DNA from: Porphyridium purpureum
Taxonomy: Eukaryota
DNA: 20,000 nucleotides
Assembly: GCA_008690995.1 (NCBI GenBank)
Contig: VRMN01000003.1
Span: 2,289,886-2,309,885, forward strand
Direction: 5' to 3'
Part shown: one piece after another, positions 1 through 20,000 of the stretch
Numbering within the stretch: position 1 is the first letter of the stretch
Layout of the letters: every line of letters starts with the position of its first letter
Notes under the pieces: model-generated
What the model was told of the DNA's origin: nothing
The model's database searches: none
The model's input: only the letters and a program-made list of their open reading frames with translations
Translations under genes and position numbers: made by a program

Positions 1-3000
1 GCCGTGACCAACACTTGATCACCAACTTGAAACTCCCGGGCATCCTTGCTTCGATCGAAGAACTTCTGCATTCTCCCCTGGGCTTCGATCAAATTGTCGC
101 GGACTTCTTCATGGACTTTGCACAGGCGAAACCAGTGCTCCGCCATGTCCTTCGTCTGTCCGTCGCGCGCAGGCCTCCACCCTTCGCTCGGTGGAAACCA
201 AGGATCCCTTCCATATACCACTTTGAACGGCGCGAATCCAGTGGCACTGCTTGGTGCAGAGTTGTACGCAAACTCGTACAACGGCAAGTCTCGCACCCAG
301 CCACTATTCGTCGCCATCAACTTGAGCATTTCCCGAATCACGCGGTTCACTCGCTCAGTTTGGCCATCTGTCTGCGGGTGGTTGGCGGTAGACATTGCCA
401 ACTTCATGCCCACCCGCTTGCTCAGCTGCTGCCAAAGCGTGGACGTGAACAGCGGATCTCGGTCAGATACAATTGACTTGGGGTATCCGAAACGGCTCAC
501 GACGTGCTTCACGAACAAGTCAGCACAACGCTTTGCTGTCAAGTCCTTGCGCGTCGGGATAAACAGCGCCATCTTCGAATAGCGATCCACCACAGTCATG
601 ATTGCATCACAGCTGCCTTCGCTCCGAGGCAGCTCCGTCACAAAGTCCATCGAGATGTCGACCCAAGGTCCTTCTGGGATCGACAAGGGCTTCAGCTTTC
701 CAAACGACCGATTCTCTGACTTTGTCACTTGGCACGCGTGACAAGTCTTCGCAAAACGGCTCACGTCTCGCTTCATCTTTGGCCAGTAGAAGCGAGTTAT
801 CAAAGATGCATAAGTTGTGTCCGCTCCACGGTGCCCTGCTGTCGAGATATCGTGGTGGAGTTGCATGACACGCTCTCTGAACTTCCTCGGTACGCAAACG
901 CGATTCCTCAAGTACAAGAGCCCAGCTTCCGTTCGAAAACCCTGGTGGGTCGGTAAATCTCCCATCAAAGTACCAAAGTCCGGGTCACTCGAGTACGAAC
1001 CCACGAATGCCTGGAAACCCGCACCAAATTCCTCACACCGAACTTGGTACTCTAGCGCGTGCACCTCTGGCTTCCTCGACAAAGTATCGGCTACCACGTT
1101 CGACTTTCCCTTCACATAGTCGATCGTGATGTCAAACTCGGCTAAAAAGTCCAGCCACCGTGCCTGACGGCCATTCAGCTCCTTCTGCGTCATCAAATGT
1201 TTCAACGCCTCATGATCTGTATGCAGCACAAACTTTGCTCCGTACAGATAAGGTCGAAACTCTCGCAGACAGTGAATGACGGCCATGAGCTCACCTTCAT
1301 AGCTGCTGTACCTGGTCTCTCGGTCCAGCAGCTTCCTCGACGTAAACGCGACCGGTCTGCCTTCCTGTGCCAGCCATCCCCCCACCGCGACTTCAGAGCG
1401 GTCCGTGTACACCTCAAATGGCTTTTCAGGGTCTGGCAAGGCCAACACCGGCGCTTCCGTCAACATCCCGACAATCTTCTTGAAGGCCGACTTGCCTTCA
1501 TCTCCCAGCTCGATCAGCTGCTTCTTCGACTTTGCGTTCTGCAACAGCGAAGTCAGCGGCGCCACGACGGTAGAGTATCCTTTGACAAACCTGCGAAACC
1601 AGTTTGTCATTCCCAAAAAGGATCTCAACTCCGTCACCGTCTTTGGCACTGGCCAATCTCTCAAAGCTTCCACCTTCCGTGGATCCATCTTCACGCAACC
1701 GTTTCCCACAATGTTCCCCAGGTATTCGACTTCAGAGACGAAGAAGCTGCACTTCTTGCGCTTCAACCGATACCCCGCCTTTTGCAAGCGCGACAACACT
1801 TCCTTCAGGACCTCGCCGTGCGACTGCCTATCCTTGGTGAAGACCAAAATATCGTCCAAGTAGACAATGACGGTCTTGTCCAGCAGATCTGCAAACAGCT
1901 CGTTCATGGCCCTCTGAAAAGTTGCCGGCGCGTTGCAAAGACCAAACGGCATCACACGGAACTCGAACTGTCCGTACCTGGTCTGGAACGCGGTCTTCGG
2001 CACGTCCTCTCTCCGAACACGCAATTGGTGGTACCTCGATGCCAAATCCAACTTTGAGAAACAATGAGCTGCGCCCAGTCGATCCAGCAACTCATCCATG
2101 TTTGGCAACGGATACCGGTCCTTCACAGTTGCGTCGTTCAACGCCCGATAATCAACGCACATCCTCATGCTGCCGTCTTTCTTCTTCACGAACAGCACGG
2201 GTGCTCCAAACGGGCTCTGACTCGGCTGGACGAATCCTTTGTCCAGCAAGTCACCCAAAGTCTCTCGGAGGACTTTCAACTCCGCAGGGCTCAGTCGGTA
2301 GACCCTGCCCACTCTCACAGGCTTCTCATCTTTCAGCCTAATCACATGCTCCACTGTTCGGCTCTCAGGCAGCCCTCGCGGCTCCTCAAACAGATTTTCG
2401 CAATCATTGAGCATCTTTCTCACAGAGTCAGCTTCTTTGCGCTCCACTGAACAGGGCTCCTCCCTTCCTTTCAGCACGCCGAGGTAGCACTCTTCTACCT
2501 CCTGACTCTTCAACAGCCGACGGAGCTCTTTCCGTGGCACCAGCATCTGCGTCATGCTCCAGGCCCTCTCCTCTCCGTAGGCCAACATGCCAGACTGCCA
2601 ATCAATCACTGGGTTCTCCCGCTTCAGCCACTCCATGCCCAGAATTGCGTCTTGTCCCGCAATCCGGCAAATGGCAAAGTTAGCGGCCCCCGAGTACCCA
2701 TCACTCAGTTCAAACTTGACATTGGAAACTTCTCCGGCTGTTTCCAATACGGACCCATCCGCTAGGGTCACTCTATCTCTCTTCCACGACGCCTTCTGCT
2801 TCAGGCCGTCGGATTTCTGCACAAAGTCCACGCTCATGAAGTTGTCCGTCGCGCCACTGTCAATCAAAAACGTGGCCTCTCCGTCGGACTTGTGCACTTT
2901 TCCTCGAACTCGAAGAAGCATGGCAGCTCCCATTCCTCCAAGTTCCTTGATCACGGGCTGATTTGCGCTCGAGTTTCGCCCACAAGGCGTCGGACAGCCA

Positions 3001-3119
3001 GACCTTGGCTTACCAAGGCCACCACAGCGGTCTCCATTGCCGCCCCTAGAGGTCTCGTAACGTCTGCGAGCCTCCTTTCCCTCTGACTGTCCGAGGAACC
3101 TCTCTACTCGAGCTCCTCG
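1..3119 (-). CDS. pol: Gypsy Pol polyprotein (aspartic protease, reverse transcriptase, RNase H, integrase), 3'-partial, in the -1 frame relative to gag
   Basis: Translated by hand; absent from the ORF track because it has no stop inside the window. Motifs found: FLIDSGATDNFM (DSG at 2861-2853), VYLDDILVF (YLDD at 1862-1851), RNase H VYTDRS...YEGELMAV...TDHEAL...NVVADTLSR, integrase H-x-GH...CHAC zinc motif, MDFV, IVSDRD, HPQTDGQTERVN, and FQVGDQVLV at the edge. DSG, YLDD, the RNase H Asp and the terminal motif are in the same frame. Confidence 0.95.
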
Positions 3120-6062: not shown

Positions 6063-6120
6063 GTTACTCTAGGGTTACTCTAGGGTTAGGGTTAAAGGAG
6101 GTTTTGCGGGTTGGGTTAGC
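6063..6120 (+). repeat. Telomere-like repeat tract: (GTTACTCTAGG)2 GTTAGG GTTA followed by degenerate GGGTT variants
   Basis: Read directly; same 11-mer as at 10545 and 18822. Confidence 0.75.
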
Positions 6121-6363: not shown

Positions 6364-9300
6364 CTAAGCATCATCATCACAACGCGTGCGGGCTTGGGCT
6401 CGTGCCGGAAATGCTCGTAGGACCCTGCGTTGAACGTGTGCGAATTGAAGATTGGCTACATCGACAGCTGCGTTGTATGGTGCGGAATTTGCGCGGGCGG
6501 CGAAGTCTCGAGCCTTCTGAATGAGCAGCCTTGAAAAGTCAGCCCGTGTCGGCTGTCTGTTTGGGTCAAAAGTACGCATCAAATGATTCAGTAGTTCCGT
6601 TTCAAACTGCGACAACACACTTCTTGGATTCTGTCGGCTCATGTCCCAGTTGAGCCAATGCCTGGTTTGTAGAAGAGAATCCAATGGATCCGCCTGTGGA
6701 CCCTGGACTACGATTGGATGATTGACTTGCTGGAATCGCTGCAGGTGGATTTCGATCCTGTTGCATGCCTGAGAATCATACTCTACAGAAGTATGTTTCA
6801 GGTGTAGTAGGGTCGTATGTTTCGTTTTCAAATTGATTGTGTCAGGTATACAAGAAATCAAACATTGCGCGGAGCTTTCGAGGAAGCCTAGGAGTGCCAG
6901 GAAGAACTGCTCGGGGTCTGGAAACTGCGCACGTGAGCGCGCGGCCATATCCTTGAACTTGCAACCCAAGTCGTCACGATCTGCCAACCTTGGGAGGTCG
7001 AACATTTTTGTCGCAATTGGACCCCAAACCCACTCATCCGCATATCCACGTGCATTTCGCTGCTTGGAAAAGATTTTCGTGCTGCAGAACGATCGCGCAG
7101 CGTCGAACTGACTTGGTTTAAGAACGACAAAGATATTATTTTCAAGAGCGAGCGCCCTCCAGCCCTCCTCTGTCATGCGGAAGGTTGCGTCGGTCTCACC
7201 GACAGGAAAAAAGTTAATTGATTGCATGCCGATGAAAAATAGTCTCACGAAGGATTTCCAGAAATCTTCGATAGTGGGCTCTGCCATGCTCAACAACTCA
7301 AGCAAGCTGTGCCTTTCCACTGGGCGTGATGCCTCGTCCGTGAAAGAAATCGAAGGCTTTCCAGCACCTCCAAAGTATGCCTGGGTAACGCGGTGTCCAC
7401 GAACTCTGCTGCTTGCGACCTGTGGAGGCGGCTTGAGGGCTTCTCGCGCATCACCATTTTCATGTCGAAATTGAAGCGTCAGCATGACCAACGCATGGCA
7501 CTCTTGCATTGGCTGAAACAAAACCTTGAGCTCGTGTGGCTCTGCATCATGACCGGAAACTTCCAGCCGGAAATTGACCATTCGCTGCCACACAACTTGC
7601 CCCGCCCATCCGCAGCCAACTGTCGCCTTGAAACCGCATGCGTCATACACAAGCTGCCGGTGCCATGTTTCATCCATGGGGTGGCGACGAAGCAAACCTG
7701 TCTGCAATGAGTACGCAGCGACCATTAGTGCGTGCAAAGGACGTCTTGCCAAGCTTATTTGTTCAAGAAACCTTCCAGTCGCACTGAAGTCACTCATACG
7801 CGCAAGTTGGCGTCCGGCACGTCGACTCAATACGTTGTAACAAGTTGCTGTGATTCTCAGATAGTCATTGAGATCTTGCGTTGAGCAAACGAGGACATAC
7901 CTCAAGCTAAAAAGCTGACTGACCCAAGCTAGCACAATTTGCCACAAGTTGGCTTCGACGCTCTCTCTGCCGTCATCGAAGTCGAAGAAGGTGGTCATGC
8001 GCAGCGGAACATGGCGCTCGCGAAGACTCATTCGAAATTCGCAGCGTACTCCATGGTCTGCGGTATCGGTCTCAGTCTCTGCTGCAATGGACTCTGCCAA
8101 TGCTTTTGTGGCACCATAAAGACTTTCAGCGTGCTCAAAGATGATGGAGCGATGCTTACTGATCCACGCGAGGGGCCTTAAAGCATGAGTATCAGAGCGG
8201 TATCGGCTGGTGTGGTATGCTTGGACGTAGCACGTATTTCGAGGAAAACCTCGACGTATGACACTCTCAGCACCACCTGCCGAAACAGAAGTTAACATAC
8301 TGCATGAGCCTCTATCCATTCGTGCACGGAATCCACTGACCTGTGGGAAATTGGCGAACCAGTCTTGCTGAATTATTCGCGGCGCGTAGCCTTTTGGAGT
8401 ATTTTTGATCCATGTTACTAAAGGGCTTTGCATGATATTGGAACTCCAAAGAACTGTATTTCCGCTTGACCCCGAAGTCCCTGCAGAAGGGATTGCGGTC
8501 ACCGCTAAGTCTACGTACACATGATTGCCCGGCACGGAACCATCGAACCCAACGCACCAACGTGACACAAAGCCTGTTTTCGCGTGGAATTGCACCATCA
8601 ATTGTCGCGTCACTTCCTGAAGGCTGCCGTTTGCAATTTTCTCCTTAAGTTCTACGAAAGTCAATCCCCAGAGCGTTGTGCTAACTAAACCTTTGAAGCC
8701 GATTGAGTCGATCAGAATCTGCCATCGACTCAAAAAATGCTGGTCCAAATAATCCACGACTCGCTGAAGAAAATGTCTTGCCACGTGAGCTCCAATAACA
8801 ATTGACAGAGATATAAATCTTGCACTTTCACCACGGGCTCGCTTTTTCGCGCTCTCGTAATTGGGCGGCATTCTCGCAAAAGTTACTGGATCCTTGACAT
8901 CTCGCACTGCCTCCAAGATAACAGATTCGTATATTAGTTTTCTGACATTCTCATCAGCCTGTGCTCCACGGATTACAATAAAAACGAGCTGCTGCTTATG
9001 GTTAGCCGCCGGCAACTCTCCGAGTTGGACAATCACAGTGTCGTCTCCAAAAGAAGGGAAACTGTCGGAATGGACTCGCAAGTTGTAAGCCTTGGACTCA
9101 ACTGCTCGGAGCCCGTGAAGGATAAGTGTGAATGATTCATCAGGGTGTAAACGGATGCCGCGCGTTACGACAATCAATGAATCGACGTCGAGCGTCATGT
9201 CAAACATCAAACTTTGCTCATTGACATGTTCAAACGGCGCATGGTGTGAAAGCGAACTCATTCCTAACCATAGATGATTGTCAGAAGCCACCCCATTTTC

Positions 9301-9411
9301 CGAGTTATCGCGAAAAGTATCACCTTGGAGCACCCACAGAATCCTCTCGTCATCAGTGACAATGCGTCGCATCCGATTCACCCATTCTCTGAAACTTGGC
9401 AGTTGTGCCAT
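6364..9411 (-). CDS. Large intronless hypothetical protein (~1015 aa from the ATG at 9411; frame open to a GTG at 9627)
   Basis: Uninterrupted 1087-codon ORF with globular-protein-like composition from MAQLPSFREW onward. The first 72 codons lie in repetitive sequence and begin with GTG. No confidently recognised domain. Confidence 0.85.
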   Translation of the reverse strand: MAQLPSFREWVNRMRRIVTDDERILWVLQGDTFRDNSENGVASDNHLWLGMSSLSHHAPFEHVNEQSLMFDMTLDVDSLIVVTRGIRLHPDESFTLILHGLRAVESKAYNLRVHSDSFPSFGDDTVIVQLGELPAANHKQQLVFIVIRGAQADENVRKLIYESVILEAVRDVKDPVTFARMPPNYESAKKRARGESARFISLSIVIGAHVARHFLQRVVDYLDQHFLSRWQILIDSIGFKGLVSTTLWGLTFVELKEKIANGSLQEVTRQLMVQFHAKTGFVSRWCVGFDGSVPGNHVYVDLAVTAIPSAGTSGSSGNTVLWSSNIMQSPLVTWIKNTPKGYAPRIIQQDWFANFPQVSGFRARMDRGSCSMLTSVSAGGAESVIRRGFPRNTCYVQAYHTSRYRSDTHALRPLAWISKHRSIIFEHAESLYGATKALAESIAAETETDTADHGVRCEFRMSLRERHVPLRMTTFFDFDDGRESVEANLWQIVLAWVSQLFSLRYVLVCSTQDLNDYLRITATCYNVLSRRAGRQLARMSDFSATGRFLEQISLARRPLHALMVAAYSLQTGLLRRHPMDETWHRQLVYDACGFKATVGCGWAGQVVWQRMVNFRLEVSGHDAEPHELKVLFQPMQECHALVMLTLQFRHENGDAREALKPPPQVASSRVRGHRVTQAYFGGAGKPSISFTDEASRPVERHSLLELLSMAEPTIEDFWKSFVRLFFIGMQSINFFPVGETDATFRMTEEGWRALALENNIFVVLKPSQFDAARSFCSTKIFSKQRNARGYADEWVWGPIATKMFDLPRLADRDDLGCKFKDMAARSRAQFPDPEQFFLALLGFLESSAQCLISCIPDTINLKTKHTTLLHLKHTSVEYDSQACNRIEIHLQRFQQVNHPIVVQGPQADPLDSLLQTRHWLNWDMSRQNPRSVLSQFETELLNHLMRTFDPNRQPTRADFSRLLIQKARDFAARANSAPYNAAVDVANLQFAHVQRRVLRAFPARAQARTRCDDDA

Positions 9412-9740
9412 ATCTGGTACAGCCGCGCGCGTCGTGAGTTCAGATGGGCCCGACCGCGGCGCAATGGCCGATGCGAGAAACAAAAACGACTCCGCGCAAT
9501 GCCACGAACGACGCGGCGGACGACCCGACCCAACGAACGCAGCGAATAAACACCACTCACGACAAACGACTCCGCACAGCAAAAGCGCCAAACAACGGGA
9601 CGCAATGAACGTGTCGAACGACGGCACCCGCCAAACGACCCCACGTAACGACCTCGACGAACGCCACGAGCCTTCGACGAGGCGAACAGCACCACGCGAT
9701 GAACGCGGCGTACGGCTCTACGCAACGAATGCAGCGAGGT

Positions 9741-9860: not shown

Positions 9861-9976
9861 CTGTAAATAGACGCACGTCTAAAGTATTAGCCCCAGTCAT
9901 CCACCGCGAAAAAAAAAGAAAGTTTCGATGTGATTACTGACTGGCAAAGGCGACGTAAATCACGACGTGCTTTGGG

Positions 9977-10544
9977 TTATGCAGGTAAAAAAAAGGAGTG
10001 CAAACTGTCTAAGGTCCAAAGTTGCGATTTGTATAGTAAAAGATATCGTTTTAATATAGAAAATATTTTACTATGGATGTCTGTGTCCAAAGTTGACTTT
10101 TCATAGGTAAATGCCAGTGTTTTAGTATGATAAATTGAGCATATAAAACGACCCCAAAATAGTGGTAGCAATGCATTACATGGACATCCCACGTTAGTTG
10201 TGACTAAGCATAGTAAAACAAGCATTTTGCTACCCGAGCATATAAAATTGACATTAAAATGTGATAATATAGACATCACGCTGGACTGAGGACGCAGTGC
10301 TTGTTGAGCGATCGGCGGGTGGTGCGTGAGGCGCGGCGGAGGAGTTGCGCGGGCGGGGCGGAGATGAGGGGCGCTGGCGGGCGCGGGCGGGGAGCGGAGA
10401 GAGGAGGGGCGCCGGCGGGCCGGAGGCGCAGGCGCGCGGGCGCAGTCGTGGGGCGCGTTGAGGCGCGGTTGGAGCGCGGGTCGGCAGGAGAAATGGGATT
10501 GTCTCGGGAAGTAGCGTGGGATCGCGAAGTGCAAAATGGACCTC
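9977..10544 (+). repeat. Dispersed repeat copy A (AT-rich block, GC-rich tail, and first bases ATGGACCTCG of a Sel1-gene paralog)
   Basis: Aligns by eye with 15737-16230 and 16940-17508 (shared gtccaaagttgcgatttgtatagtaaa, aatgcattacat, aagcatagtaaaaca, gctggactgaggac, gggatcgcgaagtgc.aaatggacctcg). Confidence 0.88.
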
Positions 10545-10563
10545 GTTACTCTAGGGTTACTCT
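10545..10563 (+). repeat. Telomere-like tract GTTACTCTAGGGTTACTCT at the 3' end of non-LTR copy 1
   Basis: Read directly; the same junction occurs at 18822-18841. Confidence 0.85.
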
Positions 10564-10623
10564 GAAATCGTTTTACATTATAAATCTAAAGGGCCTAAGC
10601 TCTGTACCTATGTATCAGCAAAG

Positions 10624-13600
10624 TCAGTGCGACTCTGCTTCCGATTCCGAGAGTACCTCGCCTACAAAGAGGCGCCTGCCCGTCTCCAGCCAGTGCTGCG
10701 AGGCAACTGGCAGAGTCGGGCCCGGGTGCCGTAGAAGCACCGCCGCCGCCACCGAGCGGTACACCGCGAGCGACAGCGACCGGTGGAGCGCCGTGCTCGC
10801 CAGCATCTTGCTGACTCCACGGTGCCGCATGTACGCCGCCACCAGAGTCTCCAGAAACGCGGCTCCGCACTGTTCGCGCCGGCCGTACGTGTCCAGAATG
10901 ACCGCCTGGAACGACACGCCAGCAGCGTCGCCGGTGCGCGCAGCAGCCTGGAAGGAGGCCTGCTTGCGACGCGCCGCTGCCGCCAGTGCCGCTCCGTCGG
11001 ACCGCCTGGTGCCGGTGCGGTCGGGCACCACCACCGCCACATCGACCCACGTGCTGTCCACGCGCAGGTCGCCCGGCCGGCGCAAGTCTGCCGCGCGCCG
11101 GGAAGGCGCGCACCGCGCTCCACCGGCAAGCCAGCGCGCGCAAAGGCAACCACGGCGTCGACCACCAGTGCCGTGCCGACCGTACCGCGACGGCCCGGGA
11201 TGGCACTTGAGCGCGTGGTGACCGTGCTGGTCCAGCGCGGCCCCAGACGGCATCCGAGCTGCCCGGAGCGCCGGACACGGACGCCGCGCTGCGTGGCTCA
11301 CAGACAGGCCAGCATGTGCCGCACGGCCGCGCGCCATGCATCTGCGCTCAGCGGCGCGCTTCCGTGCGTGCCGGCCAGCTGCGTGGCAGACGGCATCCCG
11401 AGCCACGCCAGCGCGTGCGGCGAGCTGACGCTGCGACGTCGGTGAAAGTCTGGGTCGGACGGGGCCGGCGCGTGGGACCAATCTGAGCACCATTGTCGAT
11501 AAAAGCGACGGCTCCCACGTGCCTGCGAGTCCAGCAGGGCTTCCACATCTTCGTCTGGCTCCAGGCGCCACTGCGCCACGGCGTGTGCGTCTCCGTCAAA
11601 CCTTCGCCACCACTGCGCGAGCGACGGAGGGTACACGCGTGCGGGCGGGTTGTCCACCACGCGCGCGGCAGCACGACTGCCGGCGGCAAACGCAAACGGC
11701 GCAATGTCTGCCACTGCGGTCAGTCCCAAGCCGCCAAGCGAGCACGGCAGCCGCCACTCGGCCTTGCACGGCTCGCCGACCTCGTGTGCCATCACACCCA
11801 GCGCGCGCGCGACAATGCTGCGCCACGCGCGGTCAAACTCGGCAAAGATGCGAGTCACGACGGGCGGAGGCATGGTGCGCGCCAGGTGCATCAGGCGCTT
11901 TGGCCCGACGCTGCCCCGCAGGAGGTAGAACGCCTCTTCGGGGTGGCTGAGCTTGGCCACCTGCTCCGCCAGCTGGAGCACCTGCGCGCTCGCGTTGGTG
12001 ATCGGCACGAGCGACTCGCCACTGCCGGTAAAGTCGAGCGGCACACCGAGCAGCTGCGCTTGGTCCCACGCCAGACGCGGCAGGTCGGCGAGTCCCGCGG
12101 GCACGACTGCCGTGTGCATTCCGGGAGGCAGTACCAGCTGCGTCTTGGTGCGGTTCACGCACATGCCGTGCACGGCCGCGTCGCTCGAAAAGGCGTCCAG
12201 GAAGCCTTCCAGCTGCGCGAGCGGCCCCACAATGCTGCCGTCGTCCAAGTACCAGAACGACGACAAGCCCGGCGACTCGGTGTCTGCCAGCACCTTGTGC
12301 AGCACCAGCGAGAACAGCAAGGGCCCCAGCGGGTCGCCCTGCTGCACGCCGCACGCGCTGGCCAGCACATGGGCGCCCACTCGCAGCGGAGCCGGATGCG
12401 CGTACGTTGAGCGCACCAGCGGCCACAGCGCGGGGAAACGGCCCTGCACGATGCGCATCAGCGTGGGCCGGTCGACGCAGTTGAACGCGTTCGCAATGTC
12501 GACGAGCAGCACGGCTGTGCCTGGACTCTGCATCGCGGCAGGCGCGTCCCCAGCACCGCGCCTTCGAGCCCGGCCGGGCGTCCCACGCCGTACTGGTCGG
12601 GCCGGAGCGACTCGGCTGCGTCGCTGCCCAGGTGTGCCAGCACCAGCTTGCCCAGCACGCGCCGCAGCAGCTCGCCCACTGCAATCGGTCGGACGCCGCC
12701 GTCCTTCTTCTTGAGCGGGATGAGGCGTGCGTGGCTCCACAGCGCGCCAGCTTGCGGATGCAGACCAACACTGGCGATGCGCTTGAACGCGAGAGCCACG
12801 GCCCCGAGCGCCGTGTCACCCGCCACGGGCGTGCGGATGACCTGCTGCAGCACGCCTATGGACCACCGCGACGGTCCGCACCCGCTGGTGTGCGGAATGG
12901 CCAGAATGGACTTGCGCACCGCCTGCGCGTCCCACGGCACGCGCATGCACTGCAGCTGGTCGATACTGACCGACTCGACTGGTGCGACGAGCGCTGCGTC
13001 GTGGCTGCCGCTGCGAGCCCCTGCCTCTGGATGCAGCTCGCGCAAGCGCGCCAGCACCGAGTCCGTGACGTCGTGCACACCCGCCGACTCGACCAGTCGC
13101 GCCGCGGCGCCAATGTGGTTGGCGCGCACATGCTGCACGATGCGGTGCTCCACGGCCTCTGGTGGTATGGGTCTGAGGTGTTGACCGTCCACCACAGGCA
13201 CCGAGTCGAGCAGTGGCTCGAGCGCATCGGAGCGCCACATCTTGAGCCGCGTCGCCAGGTATCTTGCCCGCGCGCGCGTGCTCTGGCGCTCCATGGGCAG
13301 GCACAGCACCAAAGTCGGAAACACCCACAGCTTTCCGAGCGCGCGGACTTGTGCGGCCTCGGACGCGGCTTCGGCCAGCTCCGTGAGCATGCTGCTGAAC
13401 TCGAGCGCAACGTCCGGCGCAAACTTTGCCGGTACGCGCTTCCACGTGCGCACGCGCAGCCCCAGCACCCAATCTACCGTTTGAAGAATGGTGAGTATGG
13501 GGGCGTCGAGCAGCGGCGACGGCGGATGCGCAGCGGCGTGACGCGCCGTCGACACATGCGTGTCTGCGGCCGTGTCGGAGCCACTGCGAGTGTCGTCGCA

Positions 13601-15171
13601 TGCTCCGCTTTACGCCCGCTCGCTGTTACGGAACTGCACGCGACCGCCGTGCCCTTCAAATCTCGGCACAACGCGCAGGATCCCGGCATCGACTGCGCTG
13701 GTGGCGCACGGACAGCGCAGGCAGCAAGCACATCGCGCCCGCCAGCCCAGCGGCCAGTAACCTCTGAGCGCGTCCGGTGGCACTGCGGCAAGTGTTTCAG
13801 CCGAGTGATTACTGCCCGCCAAGTGCCGCAGCAGCCCAGCTGGCTCGGCCCACGAGGCCTCACAGCCTGCCACGGGGCACGCGTTCCACAGCGCTCGGCA
13901 CGCTGGACACTGGCACGCGTCTTGGGGCTGCACGTCGCGCACCGCCCATCCGCACGCGTTTCGCCTCAAGTGCAGGCTGGACAGAAGCTCGGCACTCGCT
14001 GGCTCCGTCGGATGTGCCGCACGCCAGTGCTTGCCCAGCTGAGCCGCACTCTGGTAGCGTCGCATGCACTCGGCGGCCGGACATGCGTGCGGCGCTTCGA
14101 GCTGCGCCATCCGAGCCACGCTGCGTCGCGAAATGTCAAAGCCCGCCGGACGGAGCATGCGAGCAGAGCTGCGAACAGATGCGCTGTGGCCAAGCACGGC
14201 ATCCCTGACCGCTATGTGTGCGGCAGGCCCCGCACGCTGGCGCGGTCGTCGTGCGGACCGACGTGTGGCGCGACCGTCTGCCGAGTCTGCGACACTGTGC
14301 GGAGATGCCACTGGCGCGTGCGTGGCTGCCAGCACCCTAGAGCTGGAGATGTGCGCATCCACCACCGCACTCTCTCGCGCAGGACCAGCACGCTCACGCA
14401 GTTCCACTGGTCCACCCGGCCGACTTTGTAGCCGGCCTCGCCCAGACGCTCGACGAGCGCGGGGGCGTGCGGGAGCCCATTCCGCGTCGCTTTCCTCACT
14501 TGAGGCTAGAAGACTTGCGCCGCGCGGACCGGGCCCTTCCCACGAGTCAGAAAGTGTCTCACTCATGAGCCCCGAAGGGCGAAGCCGCCGAGGGAGCCGG
14601 AGTCACAGCGTGGACCTCCGGAAGTGCGGGAGCGGCAAACTCTTGGCCGCTGGCACGGCCCACTGCGGAACGGTGGGCGTGGGCCGTCTTGCACTGCATG
14701 CAGCGTGCGCGGTGCTGGTCCCGAGAGTGCGCAGAGCCGCTGAGCGCATGCCATGCTCCACACGGGTCTGCAGCGAGTCCTGCCTCGGCAAGCGCGTCTG
14801 TCGAGACCGCGTGATGCGCCGCCGTGGCACTTGGTTGCGTGGCGCACCATGCTGGCCTCGCGCGCCGCTCGGAACAAGCAGGCCGGAAACGGGCAGCGCA
14901 GCGCCTCGTCCGAGCTTTCGGAACGACTCGAGTCGCCGGCGTCAGAAGTTCCGGCGACCGGTGCATGCTGCACAGCGTCATTCAACAGACAGGCGGCAGT
15001 GCTCAGACCCGCACTGTTCTGCTGCGCGTGCTCAACGCCTCTGTCTACTGCAGACTCTTGCTGCGCTGCTTCCGCCGTCACTCTAGGCACTTCTGCAGCC
15101 GCCCGGGAACGCTTGGGCAAAGTAGCCCGGGACGGAGACACCGTGCGCGATAACGCGGCAGCGGCGGGTCG
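10624..15171 (-). pseudogene. Zinc finger-RT-RLE polyprotein of the CRE-like element, split by several frameshifts
   Basis: Fragments: 14563-15141 (CPFPAC..HATKCH), 13610-14566 (CPAAEC..HWRAAH; CPVAGC..HLAGSNH), 12458-13555 (RT N-terminal part), 11298-~12545 (RT core and thumb), 10624-~11310 (DQHGHHALKC, GRH, RPGD, VDVAV, RRKQ, FQAVILDTYG). The frameshifts may be decay or assembly indels. Confidence 0.85.
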
Positions 15172-15377
15172 CTAGGGTTACAGGCGTTTTTGAGGTACGG
15201 TGGGGCAGATCCTAGGGTAGGGTTTCTCTGCGCATACAGGTACAGCGATTACACTTGATCCAGCAGTACAGTATGTATAGGTTACAGGCGTTTTTGAGGT
15301 AGGGTGGGGCGTAGCGTAGGGTTCCTCACTTCGTGTTGAGGGTGCAGTGAGTACACTGGTCCTAGGGTTACATAGGG
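15172..15377 (+). repeat. Cluster of degenerate telomere-like motifs (CTAGGGTTAC, TAGGGTAGGGTTTCTCT, TAGGGTT) with an internal ~33-bp direct repeat
   Basis: TAGGG(TT) occurs repeatedly; tag(g)gttacaggcgtttttgaggta(c/g)ggtggggc at ~15173 and ~15278. Confidence 0.65.
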
Positions 15378-15409
15378 CGTTTGCACTCGCACTCGCTTGA
15401 AACCTCGTT

Positions 15410-15665
15410 TTATATAGTAAAACGTGGTTGTTTTGATATAAGAAACAGCGAGGTTTTAGTGATTTTTGCATAGTACAATGCCTCTGTTTTAGTAAGAAAA
15501 GTGTGTACTATAAAGGATAATTTATTCGCTATGAGAAACTAAGCATGTAAAAACGACCCAAACATTGCGGTGTAATGCATTGTATTGCCATCCCTAATGG
15601 AGAACGAGGAAGCATATAAAAACGACACTGTTTGGATATCTTACTAGAGCATACGAGAATGCCAT
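15410..15665 (+). repeat. Dispersed repeat copy B (strongly diverged AT-rich block)
   Basis: Collinear motifs tatagtaaaa, tgttttagta, agcat.taaaaacgaccc, gtaatgcatt, catccc, aagcata.aaaac, gagcata. Confidence 0.6.
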
Positions 15666-15736
15666 AGTATTATGATGATGGTGACGGCCAAAGGGACGAG
15701 ATTGACGCAAGGGCGGAGGTGTGTGGGCGATGGTGC

Positions 15737-16230
15737 GTTATACAGGTGGAAAAAAAAGTAGGGCAGATTGTCCAAAGTCCAAAGTTGCGATTTGTATAGT
15801 AAAATGGTATCGTTTTAATATAGAAAAATTTTACTATAGAGGTTCGTGTCCAAAGTTGACTTTTTCATATGTAAATGGCATTGTTTTAGTACGAAAAATT
15901 TAGCATAGAAAGACGACCCCCAAAAATGGGTGGTAATGCATTACATGGGCATCCCGAATTGGCTGTGAATAAGCATAGTAAAACAGTATTAGTTTGCTAT
16001 GGTACCGAGCATGGAAAATTGGCACTGAAATGTCATAAAATGCGCATCAAGCTGGACTGAGGACGAAGTGCCTGTTGCGCGATCAGCGGGTGGTGCGGGC
16101 GGCGGGGTGAGAGACGTGGAGCGCGAACGGTTGGGCGCGGGTTGGCGGGCGCGAACTGAGCGCCAGCGAGCACAGGCGATTCTGGGCGCAGGCGCAGTCG
16201 GGCGGTGGGGCGCAGTGAGGCGTGGGCACG
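15737..16230 (+). repeat. Dispersed repeat copy C
   Basis: Near-collinear with copies A and D. Confidence 0.88.
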
Positions 16231-16760
16231 GGCGCGCGGAGGTACGCGAGTGGTGTCGGGCGGTGGCGTCGCGCGCGTCGGCGGGTAACGACTGGGCAAG
16301 ATTTTGGTTGGCGTCTCGCACGGCACGAGCCAGCACTTGGAGCAAGGCGCGAGGTTGGGGCGCGCAGCAGCTGAGAAATGACACACGGAAGCCATATGGT
16401 AGGTTGATGTTAAAAAACATTAAAAAATTGTTTACTCAAGTATGCTACAAATTTGTCATTCAAAATGGATATTGAATGATAGCCCGTGCTCACGCGCTCA
16501 CAACGATATGCTTTGTATGTGAAACGATGCTTGTATGGCTGAGATATATGACTGTAAGTACCTTTGCAGCGGGTACGCCATTCGCAATGGTGGGTACATG
16601 ATCCGCAGCCATGGGTCCGGCATCCGCATATGCTGAACCCCTCAAATCACGGGTGCCAGCAGAACTTCTACCCTAGAGGTACAGTATCTTCATACTGGGG
16701 ACGCGGTATCCGCTTATGATGGGCATGCCAGCCGCAGCATGTGTACAGTCACGCGAAACA

Positions 16761-16860
16761 TAGTGGGCACGTGATTTGCAGGGTGGGTACGTGATCCGCA
16801 AGGTGGGGACGCGAGCCGCAAGGTGGGTACGCGAGCCGTAAAGTGGGTACGTGATCCGCA
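16761..16860. repeat. 20-bp minisatellite, 5 units (consensus aggtgggtacgtgatccgca)
   Basis: tagtgggcacgtgatttgca / gggtgggtacgtgatccgca / aggtggggacgcgagccgca / aggtgggtacgcgagccgta / aagtgggtacgtgatccgca; related motifs at ~16590 and ~16697. Confidence 0.85.
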
Positions 16861-16939
16861 CGTTGGGTCGAGTCAATAAGGGTACCATAATAAAATGGTG
16901 TTGATTTACTATAAGTGAGTACAACAACGATACTGTACA

Positions 16940-17508
16940 GTTGCACAGGGGAAAAGAAGAGTAGATTGTCCATAGTCCAACGTTGCGTTCTGCATAGTAC
17001 CACGGTATCGTTTTAATATGAAAATAATTTACCATAGCGGTTCGTGTCCATAGTTGCCTTTTTTATAGGTGAATGGCATTGTTTTAGGCTGAAAGATTTA
17101 GCATAGAAAGACGACCCCCAAAATGGGTGGTAATGCATTACATAGGCATCCCGAATTCGCGGTGAATAAGCATAGTAAAACAGTATCATTTTGATATGAT
17201 ACCCGAGCATAGCAAATTACCATTGAAATGTCATAAAATGCGCATCAAGCTGGACTCAGGACAAAGTGCCTGTTGCGCGATCAGCGGGTGGTGCGGGCGG
17301 CGGGGTGAGAGACGTGGAGCGCGAACGGTTGAGGCCATGAGCGGGCGCGAACTGAGCGCAGGCGAACCATGAGCGCCAGTCGAGGCGCAGGCGCGGAGCG
17401 CAGTCGAGCGGTGGGGCGCGTTGGGGCGCGTTGGGGCGTGGGCCGGCAAGGAGAAATGAGATTGTCTTGGGAAGTAGAGTGGGATCGCGAAGTGCGAAAT
17501 GGACCTCG
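16940..17508 (+). repeat. Dispersed repeat copy D, running into the Sel1-repeat gene start
   Basis: Near-collinear with copies A and C. Confidence 0.88.
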
Positions 17509-18676
17509 CTGCAGCGCAGCAGGGTGAAGGAGAAGCCACTTTCACGGAGCATGCGAGCGGCGAGAAGGAGAAGCAAGATTTGCGGCGTACTGCGCCGCCG
17601 CCGCCGAGCAAGCGTGCCGAAAGGAGGCGCAAAATTCGCCGGACAATGTGCCGCGGAGCATGTGCGGCGCGAGGAGGTGCGAGGTGATGTTGCACAACGC
17701 GATGGCGCAGCCGCCGCCGAGCAAGCGCGCCACAAGGAGGCACGGGATTCGCCGCACAACGGGCCAGTGCTGTGGAGCATGCGCGACGCAATGAGATGCG
17801 AAAAGATGTTGCACGACGCGAGGGTGCAGCCGCCGCCGTGCAAGCGCGCCGCTAGGAAGAGGCGCAAGAGCTTGCCGGATAACGCACCGTTGCCGCGGAG
17901 CACGCGCGCCATGAGCAGGTGCGAGATGTCACACAACGCGCCACTGTAACGGAGCAGGCGCACCGCGAGGAGGCGCGAGATTCGGCCGAACAATGCGACG
18001 GCGCCGCCGCCGCCGAGCAAGCGCACCGCGACGCTGCAGACGGCCAGCAACGTGGTCAGATTGTCGAGGACGACGACGGCCTTGCGGAATCGCTGATGTG
18101 GTTACGAGAGATGGCGCTGTTTGGAGACGCGTACGCGTAGGTCAGGCCGGGCCATGTCTATAGCGAGGGTTGGGGCAGGGTGCGCGAGGACGGTCACGCG
18201 GCGGTCGAGTGGTGGCACAAGGCCGCGGAACAGGGGCTTGCAGTGGCGCAGTTTTACTTGGGCTTTCTTTACAAAGGTGGGGATGGTGATCTGCCAAGAA
18301 CGGAAGCGCAGCGGTCGAGGAGTTCCGCAAAGTCGCGGATCATGGCGATACGCGGGCGCCGTTTCTTTTGAGCTTTTGCTGTGACAGCGGGCGGGGCGGT
18401 GCGCCAGAGGACAAGCGCTCAGCGATCGAGTGGCCACGCAAGGCCGCCGAATATGGAGACGCACTGGCACAGTGCGATTTGGGCGCTTCGTTTTCTAATG
18501 AGTCAGGCAGGCTGTGCGAGGACAAGCTCGCGATGGGTTAGTGGTGGCGCAAGGCCACGGAGTAAGGAACCGCAGGGAAGCAATAAAATTTATGCACTTG
18601 CTACCGTATTGGTTAAGGCAGTGTGCGCAAATCCAGACGCGACAGCTGCGCAAGGGATGAGCGCGGGTGCGCTTGA
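17499..18676 (+). pseudogene. Sel1-like repeat (SLR/TPR) protein pseudogene with N-terminal A/E/Q/R-rich repeats
   Basis: SLMWLREMALFGDAYA*, AVEWWHKAAEQGLAVAQFYLGFLYKGGDG, FRKVADHGDTRAPFLL, AIEWPRKAAEYGDALAQCDLG, WWRKATE*G. Multiple stops and frameshifts. Begins MDLAAAQQGEGE. Confidence 0.85.
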
Positions 18677-18690
18677 GCACACGTGAGAAT

Positions 18691-18757
18691 GAGCATGAGT
18701 GAGCACGAGTGAGCACGAGTGAGCACGAGTGAGCACGAGTGAGCACGAGTGAGCACG
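18691..18757. repeat. 10-bp minisatellite (GAGCACGAGT)n, 5 perfect units plus variants
   Basis: Read directly. Confidence 0.95.
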
Positions 18758-18766
18758 GATGATCGC

Positions 18767-18820
18767 ACAGAACACTACTCCAGACGACAGAACACCACCG
18801 AAGACTACAGAACACTACTG
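18767..18820. repeat. 20-bp tandem repeat (acagaacactact...), ~2.7 units, directly abutting the telomere-like tract
   Basis: acagaacactactccagacg / acagaacaccaccgaagact / acagaacactactg. Confidence 0.8.
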
Positions 18821-18821
18821 A

Positions 18822-20000
18822 GGTTACTCTAGGGTTACTCTGAAATCGTTTTACATTATAAATCTAAAGGGCCTAAGCTCTGTACCTATGTATCAGCAAA
18901 GTCAGTGCGACTCTGCTTCCGATTCCGAGAGTACCTCGCCTACAAAGAGGCGCCTGCCCGTCTCCAGCCAGTGCTGCGAGGCAACTGACAGAGTCGGGCC
19001 CGGGTGCCGTAGAAGCACCGCCGCCGCCACCGAGCGGTATACCGCGAGCGACAGCGACCGGTGGAGCGCCGTGCTTGCCAGCATCTGGCTTACTCCACGG
19101 TGCCGCATGTACGCCGCCACCAGAGTCTCCAGAAACGCGGCTCCACACTGTTCGCGCCGGCCGTACGTGTCCAGAATGACCGCCTGGAACGACACGCCAG
19201 CAGCGTCGCCAGTGCGCGCAGCAGCCTGGAAGGAGGCCTGCTTGCGACGCGCCGCTGCCGCGAGTGCCGCTCCGTCGGACCGCCTGGTGCCGGTGCGGTC
19301 GAGGAACGCCTATACATCGTGCGTGCTGTCCGCGCCAGGTCGCCCGGCCAGCGCAAGTCAGCCACGCCGGGAAGGCCTCATATCCGCGGCAAATACAGCG
19401 GCGCGCTCGAGGCAAACCACGGCGTCGACCACCAGTGCGTGCCGACCGTACCGCGACGGCCGAGATAATAACGCGAGCGCGTGGTGACCGTGCTGGTGTA
19501 CCCAATACCAGACGGCTGTGCCCGATGGCGCGGACACGGACGCCGCGCGCTGCGTGGCTCTGAACGAACCGCTGTCGCTGACCACGCCATGCAGCTGCAC
19601 TCGGCGCCTTCCATTGCGATGCCAGCCAGCTGCGTGGCAGACGGCGCATCTGACACGCCAGCGCGGTGCGGCGAGCCCTGACGCCTTTGCGACGTCGGTG
19701 AGGATCTGGGTCGGACGGGGCCGGCGCGTGGGACCAATCTGAGCACAATTGTCGATAAAAGCGACGGCTCCCACGTGCCTGCGAGTCCAGCAGGGCTTCC
19801 ACATCTTCGTCTGGCTCCAAGCGCCACTGCGCCACGGCGTGTGCGTCTCCGTCAAACGTTCGCCACCACTGCGCGAGCGACGGAGGGTACACGCGTGCGG
19901 GCGGGTTGTCCACCACGCGCGCGGCAGCACGACTGCCGGCGGCAAACGCAAACGGCGCAATGTCTGCCACTGCGGTCAGTCCCAAGCCGCCAAGCGAGCA
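18822..20000 (-). mobile_element. CRE-clade non-LTR retrotransposon, copy 2 (3' end; continues beyond the right edge)
   Basis: GGTTACTCTAGGGTTACTCT followed by sequence nearly identical to 10564 onward (3' UTR, RLE C-terminus, post-RT region). Confidence 0.93.

Follow-up and report, generated by a model that had tools for sequence, protein, structure and literature searches.

A gene-fragment module of Porphyridium purpureum ends abruptly at position 10545 of the window, the 20,000-nt stretch of DNA analysed here, where it passes into a short telomere-like repeat; inside that repeat tract lies an element which, judged by its sequence, is a non-LTR retrotransposon of the restriction-like endonuclease (RLE) type. 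This arrangement is probably the trace of a chromosome break that was capped by telomerase, entered by the element within the tract at T^AGGG and later buried by subtelomeric DNA. The window contains modules A (9973-10545), C (15734-16222) and D (16952-17508), which are related to one another; the features around the junction are as follows.

9973..10545, + strand: module A, AT-rich short repeats and then a GC-rich piece of kinase-Sel1 origin that breaks off at 10545, with a weak protein match to P0121
10536..10538, + strand: the ATG of the earlier note, probably not a start codon, within the region that aligns to P0121 residues from about 556 on
10545, + strand: G, the last base common to A and D, which gives 1-nt microhomology by doubling as the G that closes a repeat unit
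10546..10563, + strand: tract T2, 1.6 units of TTACTCTAGGG, stopping at the insertion point T^AGGG
15734..16395, + strand: module C, running into a kinase-Sel1 piece (residues 461-526) and interrupted at about 16395
16952..18640, + strand: module D with a decayed coiled-coil/Sel1 pseudogene, the uninterrupted paralogue, with stops and frameshifts; its continuation is present in runs X7 and X10

By blastn, module A is 75% identical to D over 574 columns, the alignment ending at 10545/17508, and 82% identical to C over 375 columns. ATGGACCTCG is found at 10536 in A and at 17499 in D. Ungapped identity between A and D drops from 0.95 over the 40 bases before the join to 0.20 over the 40 after it; past this point A enters TTACTCTAGGGTTACTCT (10546-10563), while D proceeds into coding-derived sequence. 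The homology stops exactly at the start of the repeat with the shared G as seed, which is a feature of de novo telomere addition. This alignment with the uninterrupted paralogue, a check proposed in the earlier note, bears out its claim that A follows D up to 10545 and then enters the repeat. Its statement that the remainder of the gene does not reappear past the element is borne out as well, as the continuation of D (17509-18820) yields only two chance 16-mers in 15174-16400.

The junction is also represented in one public sequencing run. There, an X10 contig (10313-10563) spans the join of A and the tract at a depth of 3.65, with 2 other letters and 13 gaps, and reaches just 18 nt to the right of 10545, the threshold for bridging being 31 nt. 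Among the contigs listed, the join is crossed in this one of five DNA runs and not in X1, X2, X6 or X7, and the GC-rich part is thinly covered; X1 and X6 have no cover at 10320-10545 and are neutral evidence for the join. An assembly error between repeats would be compatible with a join crossed in one run and with an assembly that appears error-prone, since many small indels of the window are missing from three short-read runs; against this stand the X10 contig over A and the tract, an X2 contig over the 5' junction of the element and the presence in X1 of the junction of a further tract, T4, and we regard such an error as the least probable of the readings weighed here. The X10 contig stops precisely at the insertion point, 10563. 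An element-free allele would produce such an end, which at this low depth is a hint only that one exists.

The earlier note described the cut sequence as a Sel1 gene interrupted 10 nt after its ATG. The 10 nt are correct if counted from the A of the triplet, but the ATG does not hold up as the start of a gene. In D, the frame opened by the ATG stops after 62 codons and is followed by further stops and frameshifts, and no open frame leading from the ATG into Sel1 repeats was found in this uncut paralogue. The closest relative is P0121, a 1126-aa kinase/coiled-coil/Sel1 protein of P. purpureum, to whose C-terminal half D aligns. The match is clear from residue 607 onward, and a weak one (E 2e-6; small low-complexity search) sets in earlier, at about residue 556 (position 17467). 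In the frame aligned to P0121, AAATGG encodes Lys-Trp without Met. Module C continues into residues 461-526 of P0121. Since the D frame stops after 62 codons and the region aligns to the middle of P0121, the triplet at 10536 is probably incidental rather than a start, and the sequence cut at 10545 was most likely an already decayed fragment of a kinase-Sel1 gene. Alternatively, a kinase-less gene may have started at this ATG.

Further rearrangements are visible in the modules. A high-copy insertion (about 16393-16880), which in X1 follows several different sequences on its left and which contains a 20-nt tandem repeat at 16763-16868, interrupts module C at about 16395, and the empty allele of this site was found in X7 and X10. 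Additionally, an AT-rich motif of about 26 nt occurs in the modules in thirteen copies, some of them inverted (10032-10230, 15406-16000 and 16879-17200), and we take it to resemble the subterminal repeats of a DNA transposon end.

The repeat that caps module A occurs in three other tracts of the window, one of which borders a series of degenerate units.

6064..6094, + strand: tract T1, a G followed by (TTACTCTAGGG)2, TTAGGG and TTA; element-free, oriented as T2-T4, with a depth spike in X2 and X6
15174..15181, + strand: tract T3, AGGGTTAC, covered without differences by an X2 contig (15144-15309) with 30 nt on the element side
15174..15400, + strand: degenerate units of about 100 nt, each opening with a telomere-like motif; multicopy (X1 depth 44-50 versus 15) and now distal to the tract
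18822..18841, + strand: tract T4, GG and 1.6 units, built like T2 after a different flank; X1 has the same join

The mixed array of TTACTCTAGGG and TTAGGG is likely the Porphyridium telomere, as far as its sequence and arrangement can indicate. The 11-mer occurs four times in the window, where 0.07 occurrences are expected and none of 200 shuffles reaches four, and the G-rich strand is the + strand in all four tracts. The summed contig depth of the bin with T1 is 90,929 in X2 against about 625 for single-copy sequence, and 241 in X6 against about 12, values that differ from copy number and translate roughly into an array no shorter than some hundreds of bases. In X2, go-back joints over T1 denote tandem arrays, whereas X1 has 18.8 versus 15.3 over T1, without a depth spike; high-depth tandem arrays of the repeat are thereby present in two of three DNA runs. 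The phase of the joins between flank and tract is biased. Among the ten joins listed, some of which may share ancestry, seven begin with one or two G followed by TTAC (random phase 0.18 each, p 4e-4), as telomerase healing predicts, and five of eight would still give p 0.006. The other three of the ten are in other phases, and one of these was seen in 4 RNA reads, in which a gypsy coding sequence (the reverse complement of window positions of about 2993-3018, uncut there) breaks off and passes into the repeat. The window itself carries, on the minus strand from position 1 to about 4450, a Ty3/gypsy LTR retrotransposon whose gag and pol frames are open; the capped sequence belongs to another copy of it. 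The idea at the core of the earlier note, a truncation capped by a telomere-type repeat in the manner of MoTeR elements, is strengthened by the tandem high-copy repeat in X2 and X6, by unrelated flanks that join the repeat at a G before TTAC and by the capped gypsy sequence; the part of that idea which does not survive is the attachment of the retroelement, treated below.

The DNA beyond the tracts consists of degenerate repeats and gene fragments without longer pure arrays, and a joint in X1 places a 28-nt pure tract before 15280. Both this distal DNA, which is not a pure array, and the missing spike over T1 in X1 would suit a reading in which TTACTCTAGGG is an interstitial satellite that was invaded by a satellite-specific element and shuffled by ordinary recombination in a transposon-rich region. 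We consider this very improbable indeed, since the repeat has a TnAGGG form mixed with TTAGGG, all four tracts have a single strand orientation and the joins are biased in phase; moreover, known telomere probes failed in P. purpureum, which leaves room for an unusual motif (PMC3622300). According to the available text of that study, the probes were of human and Cyanidioschyzon type and gave no signal, after BAL31, and TRAP on three red algae yielded a false positive but no telomerase activity that could be reproduced (PMC3622300). The TRAP outcome counts against reading the repeat as a telomere, with the qualification that other primers were used. A kinship between the DNA distal to T1 and that distal to T3 was considered and dropped, as their score after removal of the tracts is 48, below the shuffle maximum of 56.

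The retrotransposon is present in two copies in the window.

10564..15173, - strand: non-LTR retrotransposon copy 1, with C2H2 fingers, a reverse transcriptase (RT; YLDD), a CCHC-like motif and PGDL..VDV..K; stop codon at 10624-10626 and a 60-nt 3' UTR
10557..10563, - strand: the 7 bases (AGAGUAA) that likely close the templated part of the element RNA, ahead of the poly(A), and are complementary to TTACTCT
18842..20000, - strand: the 3' part of element copy 2, 89% identical to copy 1 over 1216 columns, leaving the window

Copy 1 is 4.6 kb long and keeps its whole ORF. A single frame combines the RT (RVT_1, E 1e-11) with a C-terminal CCHC-like and a restriction-like endonuclease motif, the combination that characterises RLE-type non-LTR elements. 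We take PGDL..VDV..K to be the C-terminal restriction-like endonuclease-like motif; the sister-family gene model P0143, which aligns to 11277-10801, has a clear CCHC. The best PDB matches of the element are R2 proteins (E 7e-8), followed by group II RTs, with L1 far weaker, and a PDB search with the C-terminal half returned nothing. The RT motifs presumably resemble those of the CRE clade; neither MoTeR nor another named reference, for example CRE1 or SLACS, is among the matches listed (120 in each of two sets). The ORF is 90-99% identical to P. purpureum gene models. Its frameshifts are probably assembly errors, since they largely coincide with small indels relative to the window at 11092-14815 that are common to X2, X7 and X10, and intact copies of the element likely exist.

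The element is multicopy, with copies on many contigs of 3-93 kb and on several large contigs. In X2 and X10 other copies extend beyond 15173 with different sequence, so copy 1 is likely 5'-truncated in its leader at this position. Retrotransposition that truncates 5' ends should leave more summed depth over the 3' end of the element than over its 5' end, and this pattern holds in three of four runs (X1, X2 and X7, but not X10). In the P. purpureum gene models P0143, P0009 and P0002, a 3' part from one family is fused with the element that follows, and these fusions point to head-to-tail arrays. In the sister family, the last 45 nt or so of the element (10552-10597) are shared with 3 differences, after which the sequence diverges; this end was seen in X1, X10 and 12 RNA reads.

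Both junctions of copy 1 are with the repeat. The earlier note overlooked the repeat beyond the 5' end of the element and allowed for attachment of the retroelement to the broken end, which does not agree with the sequence at 15173, where the element adjoins AGGGTTAC (15174-15181), a continuation of the tract exactly in phase with 10546-10563. The chance of a given 8-mer at the 5' end is about 1e-5. Additionally, an X1 contig contains a second element copy, cut to about 130 nt, behind which 28 nt of repeat, a mixture of 11-mer and TTAGGG units, resume at AGGG with 2-nt microhomology. The repeat resumes in phase at AGGG at both of the 5' junctions seen (2/2), so the element was inserted in the tract at T^AGGG rather than attached to a broken end. 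On the other side, at least eight distinct flanks precede element 3' ends, namely those of the two window copies and six loose-end groups (X1, X2, X7, X10 and X21), some of which belong to the sister family that shares the last 45 nt or so. All eight of the flanks listed end in the repeat at ..CTCT; seven have at least 12 nt of repeat and one has CTCT only, two include a TTAGGG unit, and the tracts vary in make-up and in length from 4 to 30 nt. The longest anchored duplication at the target site is 2 nt, CT. The lack of a target-site duplication pointed out in the earlier note is accurate apart from these 2 nt, but it is no evidence of truncation, as the mode of insertion of the element accounts for it.

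The 3' end of the element RNA probably lies within the repeat. In X21, a T8 loose end lies before 10557 in 5 of 80 reads from about a fifth of the run, which suggests that the RNA ends in AGAGUAA and poly(A), complementary to the primer side TTACTCT; a genomic A-run in another copy, or the sister family, could also be the source of the T8. Read-through RNA over the tract and the flank is present too (18 and 4 reads), and together with the often identical tract length it would accord with an element that carries its own repeat tail and was inserted with it at a break or deletion, in which case the tract arrived with the element. We find this very unlikely, because an in-phase repeat at the 5' end, observed in two of two cases, is impossible for a 3' tail, because an RNA ending at the poly(A) site includes no more than 7 nt of repeat, and because T1 is a tract without an element.

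The capping history would comprise the following steps. A chromosome break in the subtelomere would have left a 3' end in G, and this terminal G would have paired with the telomerase template and been extended with TTACTCTAGGG. The endonuclease of the element would then have nicked the G-rich strand after TTACTCT, cutting T^AGGG, and the nicked 3' end may have paired with AGAGUAA ahead of the poly(A) and primed reverse transcription. The 5' end of the element joined AGGG in the phase observed, presumably through the 2-nt microhomology. Finally, the distal array would have shrunk to 8 nt and been extended with a multicopy unit that opens with telomere-like motifs, probably copied from another subtelomere.

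One observation counts against capping at each site, as four loci have an identical tract length of 1.6 units, a pattern also expected if one ancestral junction had been copied or a tail carried along. The repeat could accordingly be both a telomere and the target of the element while the break was repaired here without telomerase, by copying or joining an existing tract and element through break-induced replication or microhomology joining. The same G and 1.6-unit tract before the element at four loci fits such copying, as does a region made of the duplicated modules A, C and D, and Rahnama et al. left copying of this kind open for MoTeRs in the part of their preprint available (10.1101/845669). 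However, joining in random phase does not predict that seven of the ten joins listed lie at a G before TTAC, the element-free T1 has the same start, and the make-up of the tracts differs between loci, and for these reasons we rate copying as rather unlikely. Capping by telomerase remains the reading that we prefer. A wider proposal, to which we give slightly less than even credence, is that the mixed TTACTCTAGGG/TTAGGG array is an unreported telomere on which at least two to three RLE families prime reverse transcription on the G-rich strand, through a 7-nt match before the poly(A), and stack head-to-tail. If true, telomerase and retroelements would together construct the chromosome ends of red algae, in cycles of breakage, capping, insertion and extension, of which the window would hold four records.

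The closest known parallel is MoTeR1 and the MoTeR relics of Pyricularia (Magnaporthe) oryzae. In the available text of the three sources on them (PMC8381367, 10.1101/845669, PMC3636483), an RLE non-LTR element likewise lies in telomere repeats, with 1.5-2 units at its 3' end, without a target-site duplication and with internalised copies beside duplicated flanks, and for MoTeR1 a first nick on the G-rich strand and pairing with the RNA 3' end have been proposed. MoTeR relics are described as lacking a target-site duplication and retaining a vestigial telomere at their 3' end (PMC8381367), and some carry tracts at the 5' truncation too (10.1101/845669). Unlike MoTeR, the present element has a red-algal host, targets an 11-nt unit mixed with TTAGGG and, in copy 1, keeps the whole ORF. 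The likeness to MoTeR relics drawn in the earlier note is apt for the insertion in a repeat and the missing target-site duplication, but not for size: such a relic is a short, heavily 5'-truncated 3' terminus with a vestigial telomere, which the 4.6-kb copy 1 with its whole ORF is not and which the copy of about 130 nt in X1 would be.

Other telomere-associated systems share single features with the window. The endonuclease of TRAS1 of Bombyx mori cuts a T-A step of the G-rich strand (PMC2868851, in the part available), as the cut at T^AGGG would do here, and SART1 of the same species is reported in part of PMC7265360 to need a minimum number of repeats and to insert at a fixed unit, which parallels the frequent insertion in the second unit here. 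TRAS1 and SART1 are APE-endonuclease elements, in contrast to the Porphyridium element with its R2-like RT matches and C-terminal restriction-like motif. The junction at 10545 resembles de novo telomere addition in its abrupt loss of homology and in a repeat that starts from a 1-nt seed, with both telomerase and a terminal position being candidates only; a single-nucleotide seed has been shown for a MoTeR2 truncation in the available part of 10.1101/845669. For red algae, the telomere candidates given in the available texts of PMC3622300 and PMC7046594 are AATGGGGGG (Cyanidioschyzon), TTTATT(T)AGGG (Galdieria) and TTAGGG (Porphyra reads), with none for Porphyridium. TTACTCTAGGG is like these in that Rhodophyta have unusual, long TnAGGG-type units, and differs in having a C in the G-rich strand and in being mixed with TTAGGG (PMC3622300, PMC7046594).

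The candidate motif for the telomere and the occurrence in red algae of an element that targets it appear to be new, having no match in the literature searched, whereas the break-and-heal mechanism is known from Pyricularia. A 2020 review, in the text available, describes red algal telomere data as mostly missing or fragmentary and lists Cyanidioschyzon, Galdieria and Porphyra only (PMC7046594); the part available of a list of telomeric retrotransposons covers insects, Chlorella, a lizard, a fungus, rotifers and Giardia and names no red alga (PMC10088271). Porphyridium is not named in the text and one text supplement of the TeloBase paper, nor in one supplement file of TelFinder. A literature search for the 11-mer in six rotations and for Porphyridium telomeres retrieved nothing relevant among the results listed, and the motif may be listed in the TeloBase database, subscription journals or preprint supplements beyond our reach. 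If the telomere and its element are real, Rhodophyta would join the lineages with telomere-targeting retrotransposons. The analysis supplies an exact motif for work on the P. purpureum telomere and a predicted template, about 1.5 units of CCCUAGAGUAA, for the telomerase RNA, and the repeat offers a means to recognise chromosome ends in assemblies of this biotechnologically used alga.

Several minor observations concern the surroundings of the tracts. The tract-element junction motif had 0 matches in genome contigs and viral contigs. Among metagenome contigs, the sole match for 2.6 units of the repeat is L001, a phage-like contig with a terminase-like frame, where the same 11-mer stands amid short degenerate repeats at 2800-2860; we set this match aside as due to chance. 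Between T1 and module A, an open frame of about 1020-1117 aa (6364-9717, minus strand), for which searches of Pfam, PHROG and Atlas gave no match, is single-copy and weakly transcribed (X21). Directly ahead of T4, at 18690-18819, lie two minisatellites with units of 10 and 20 nt.
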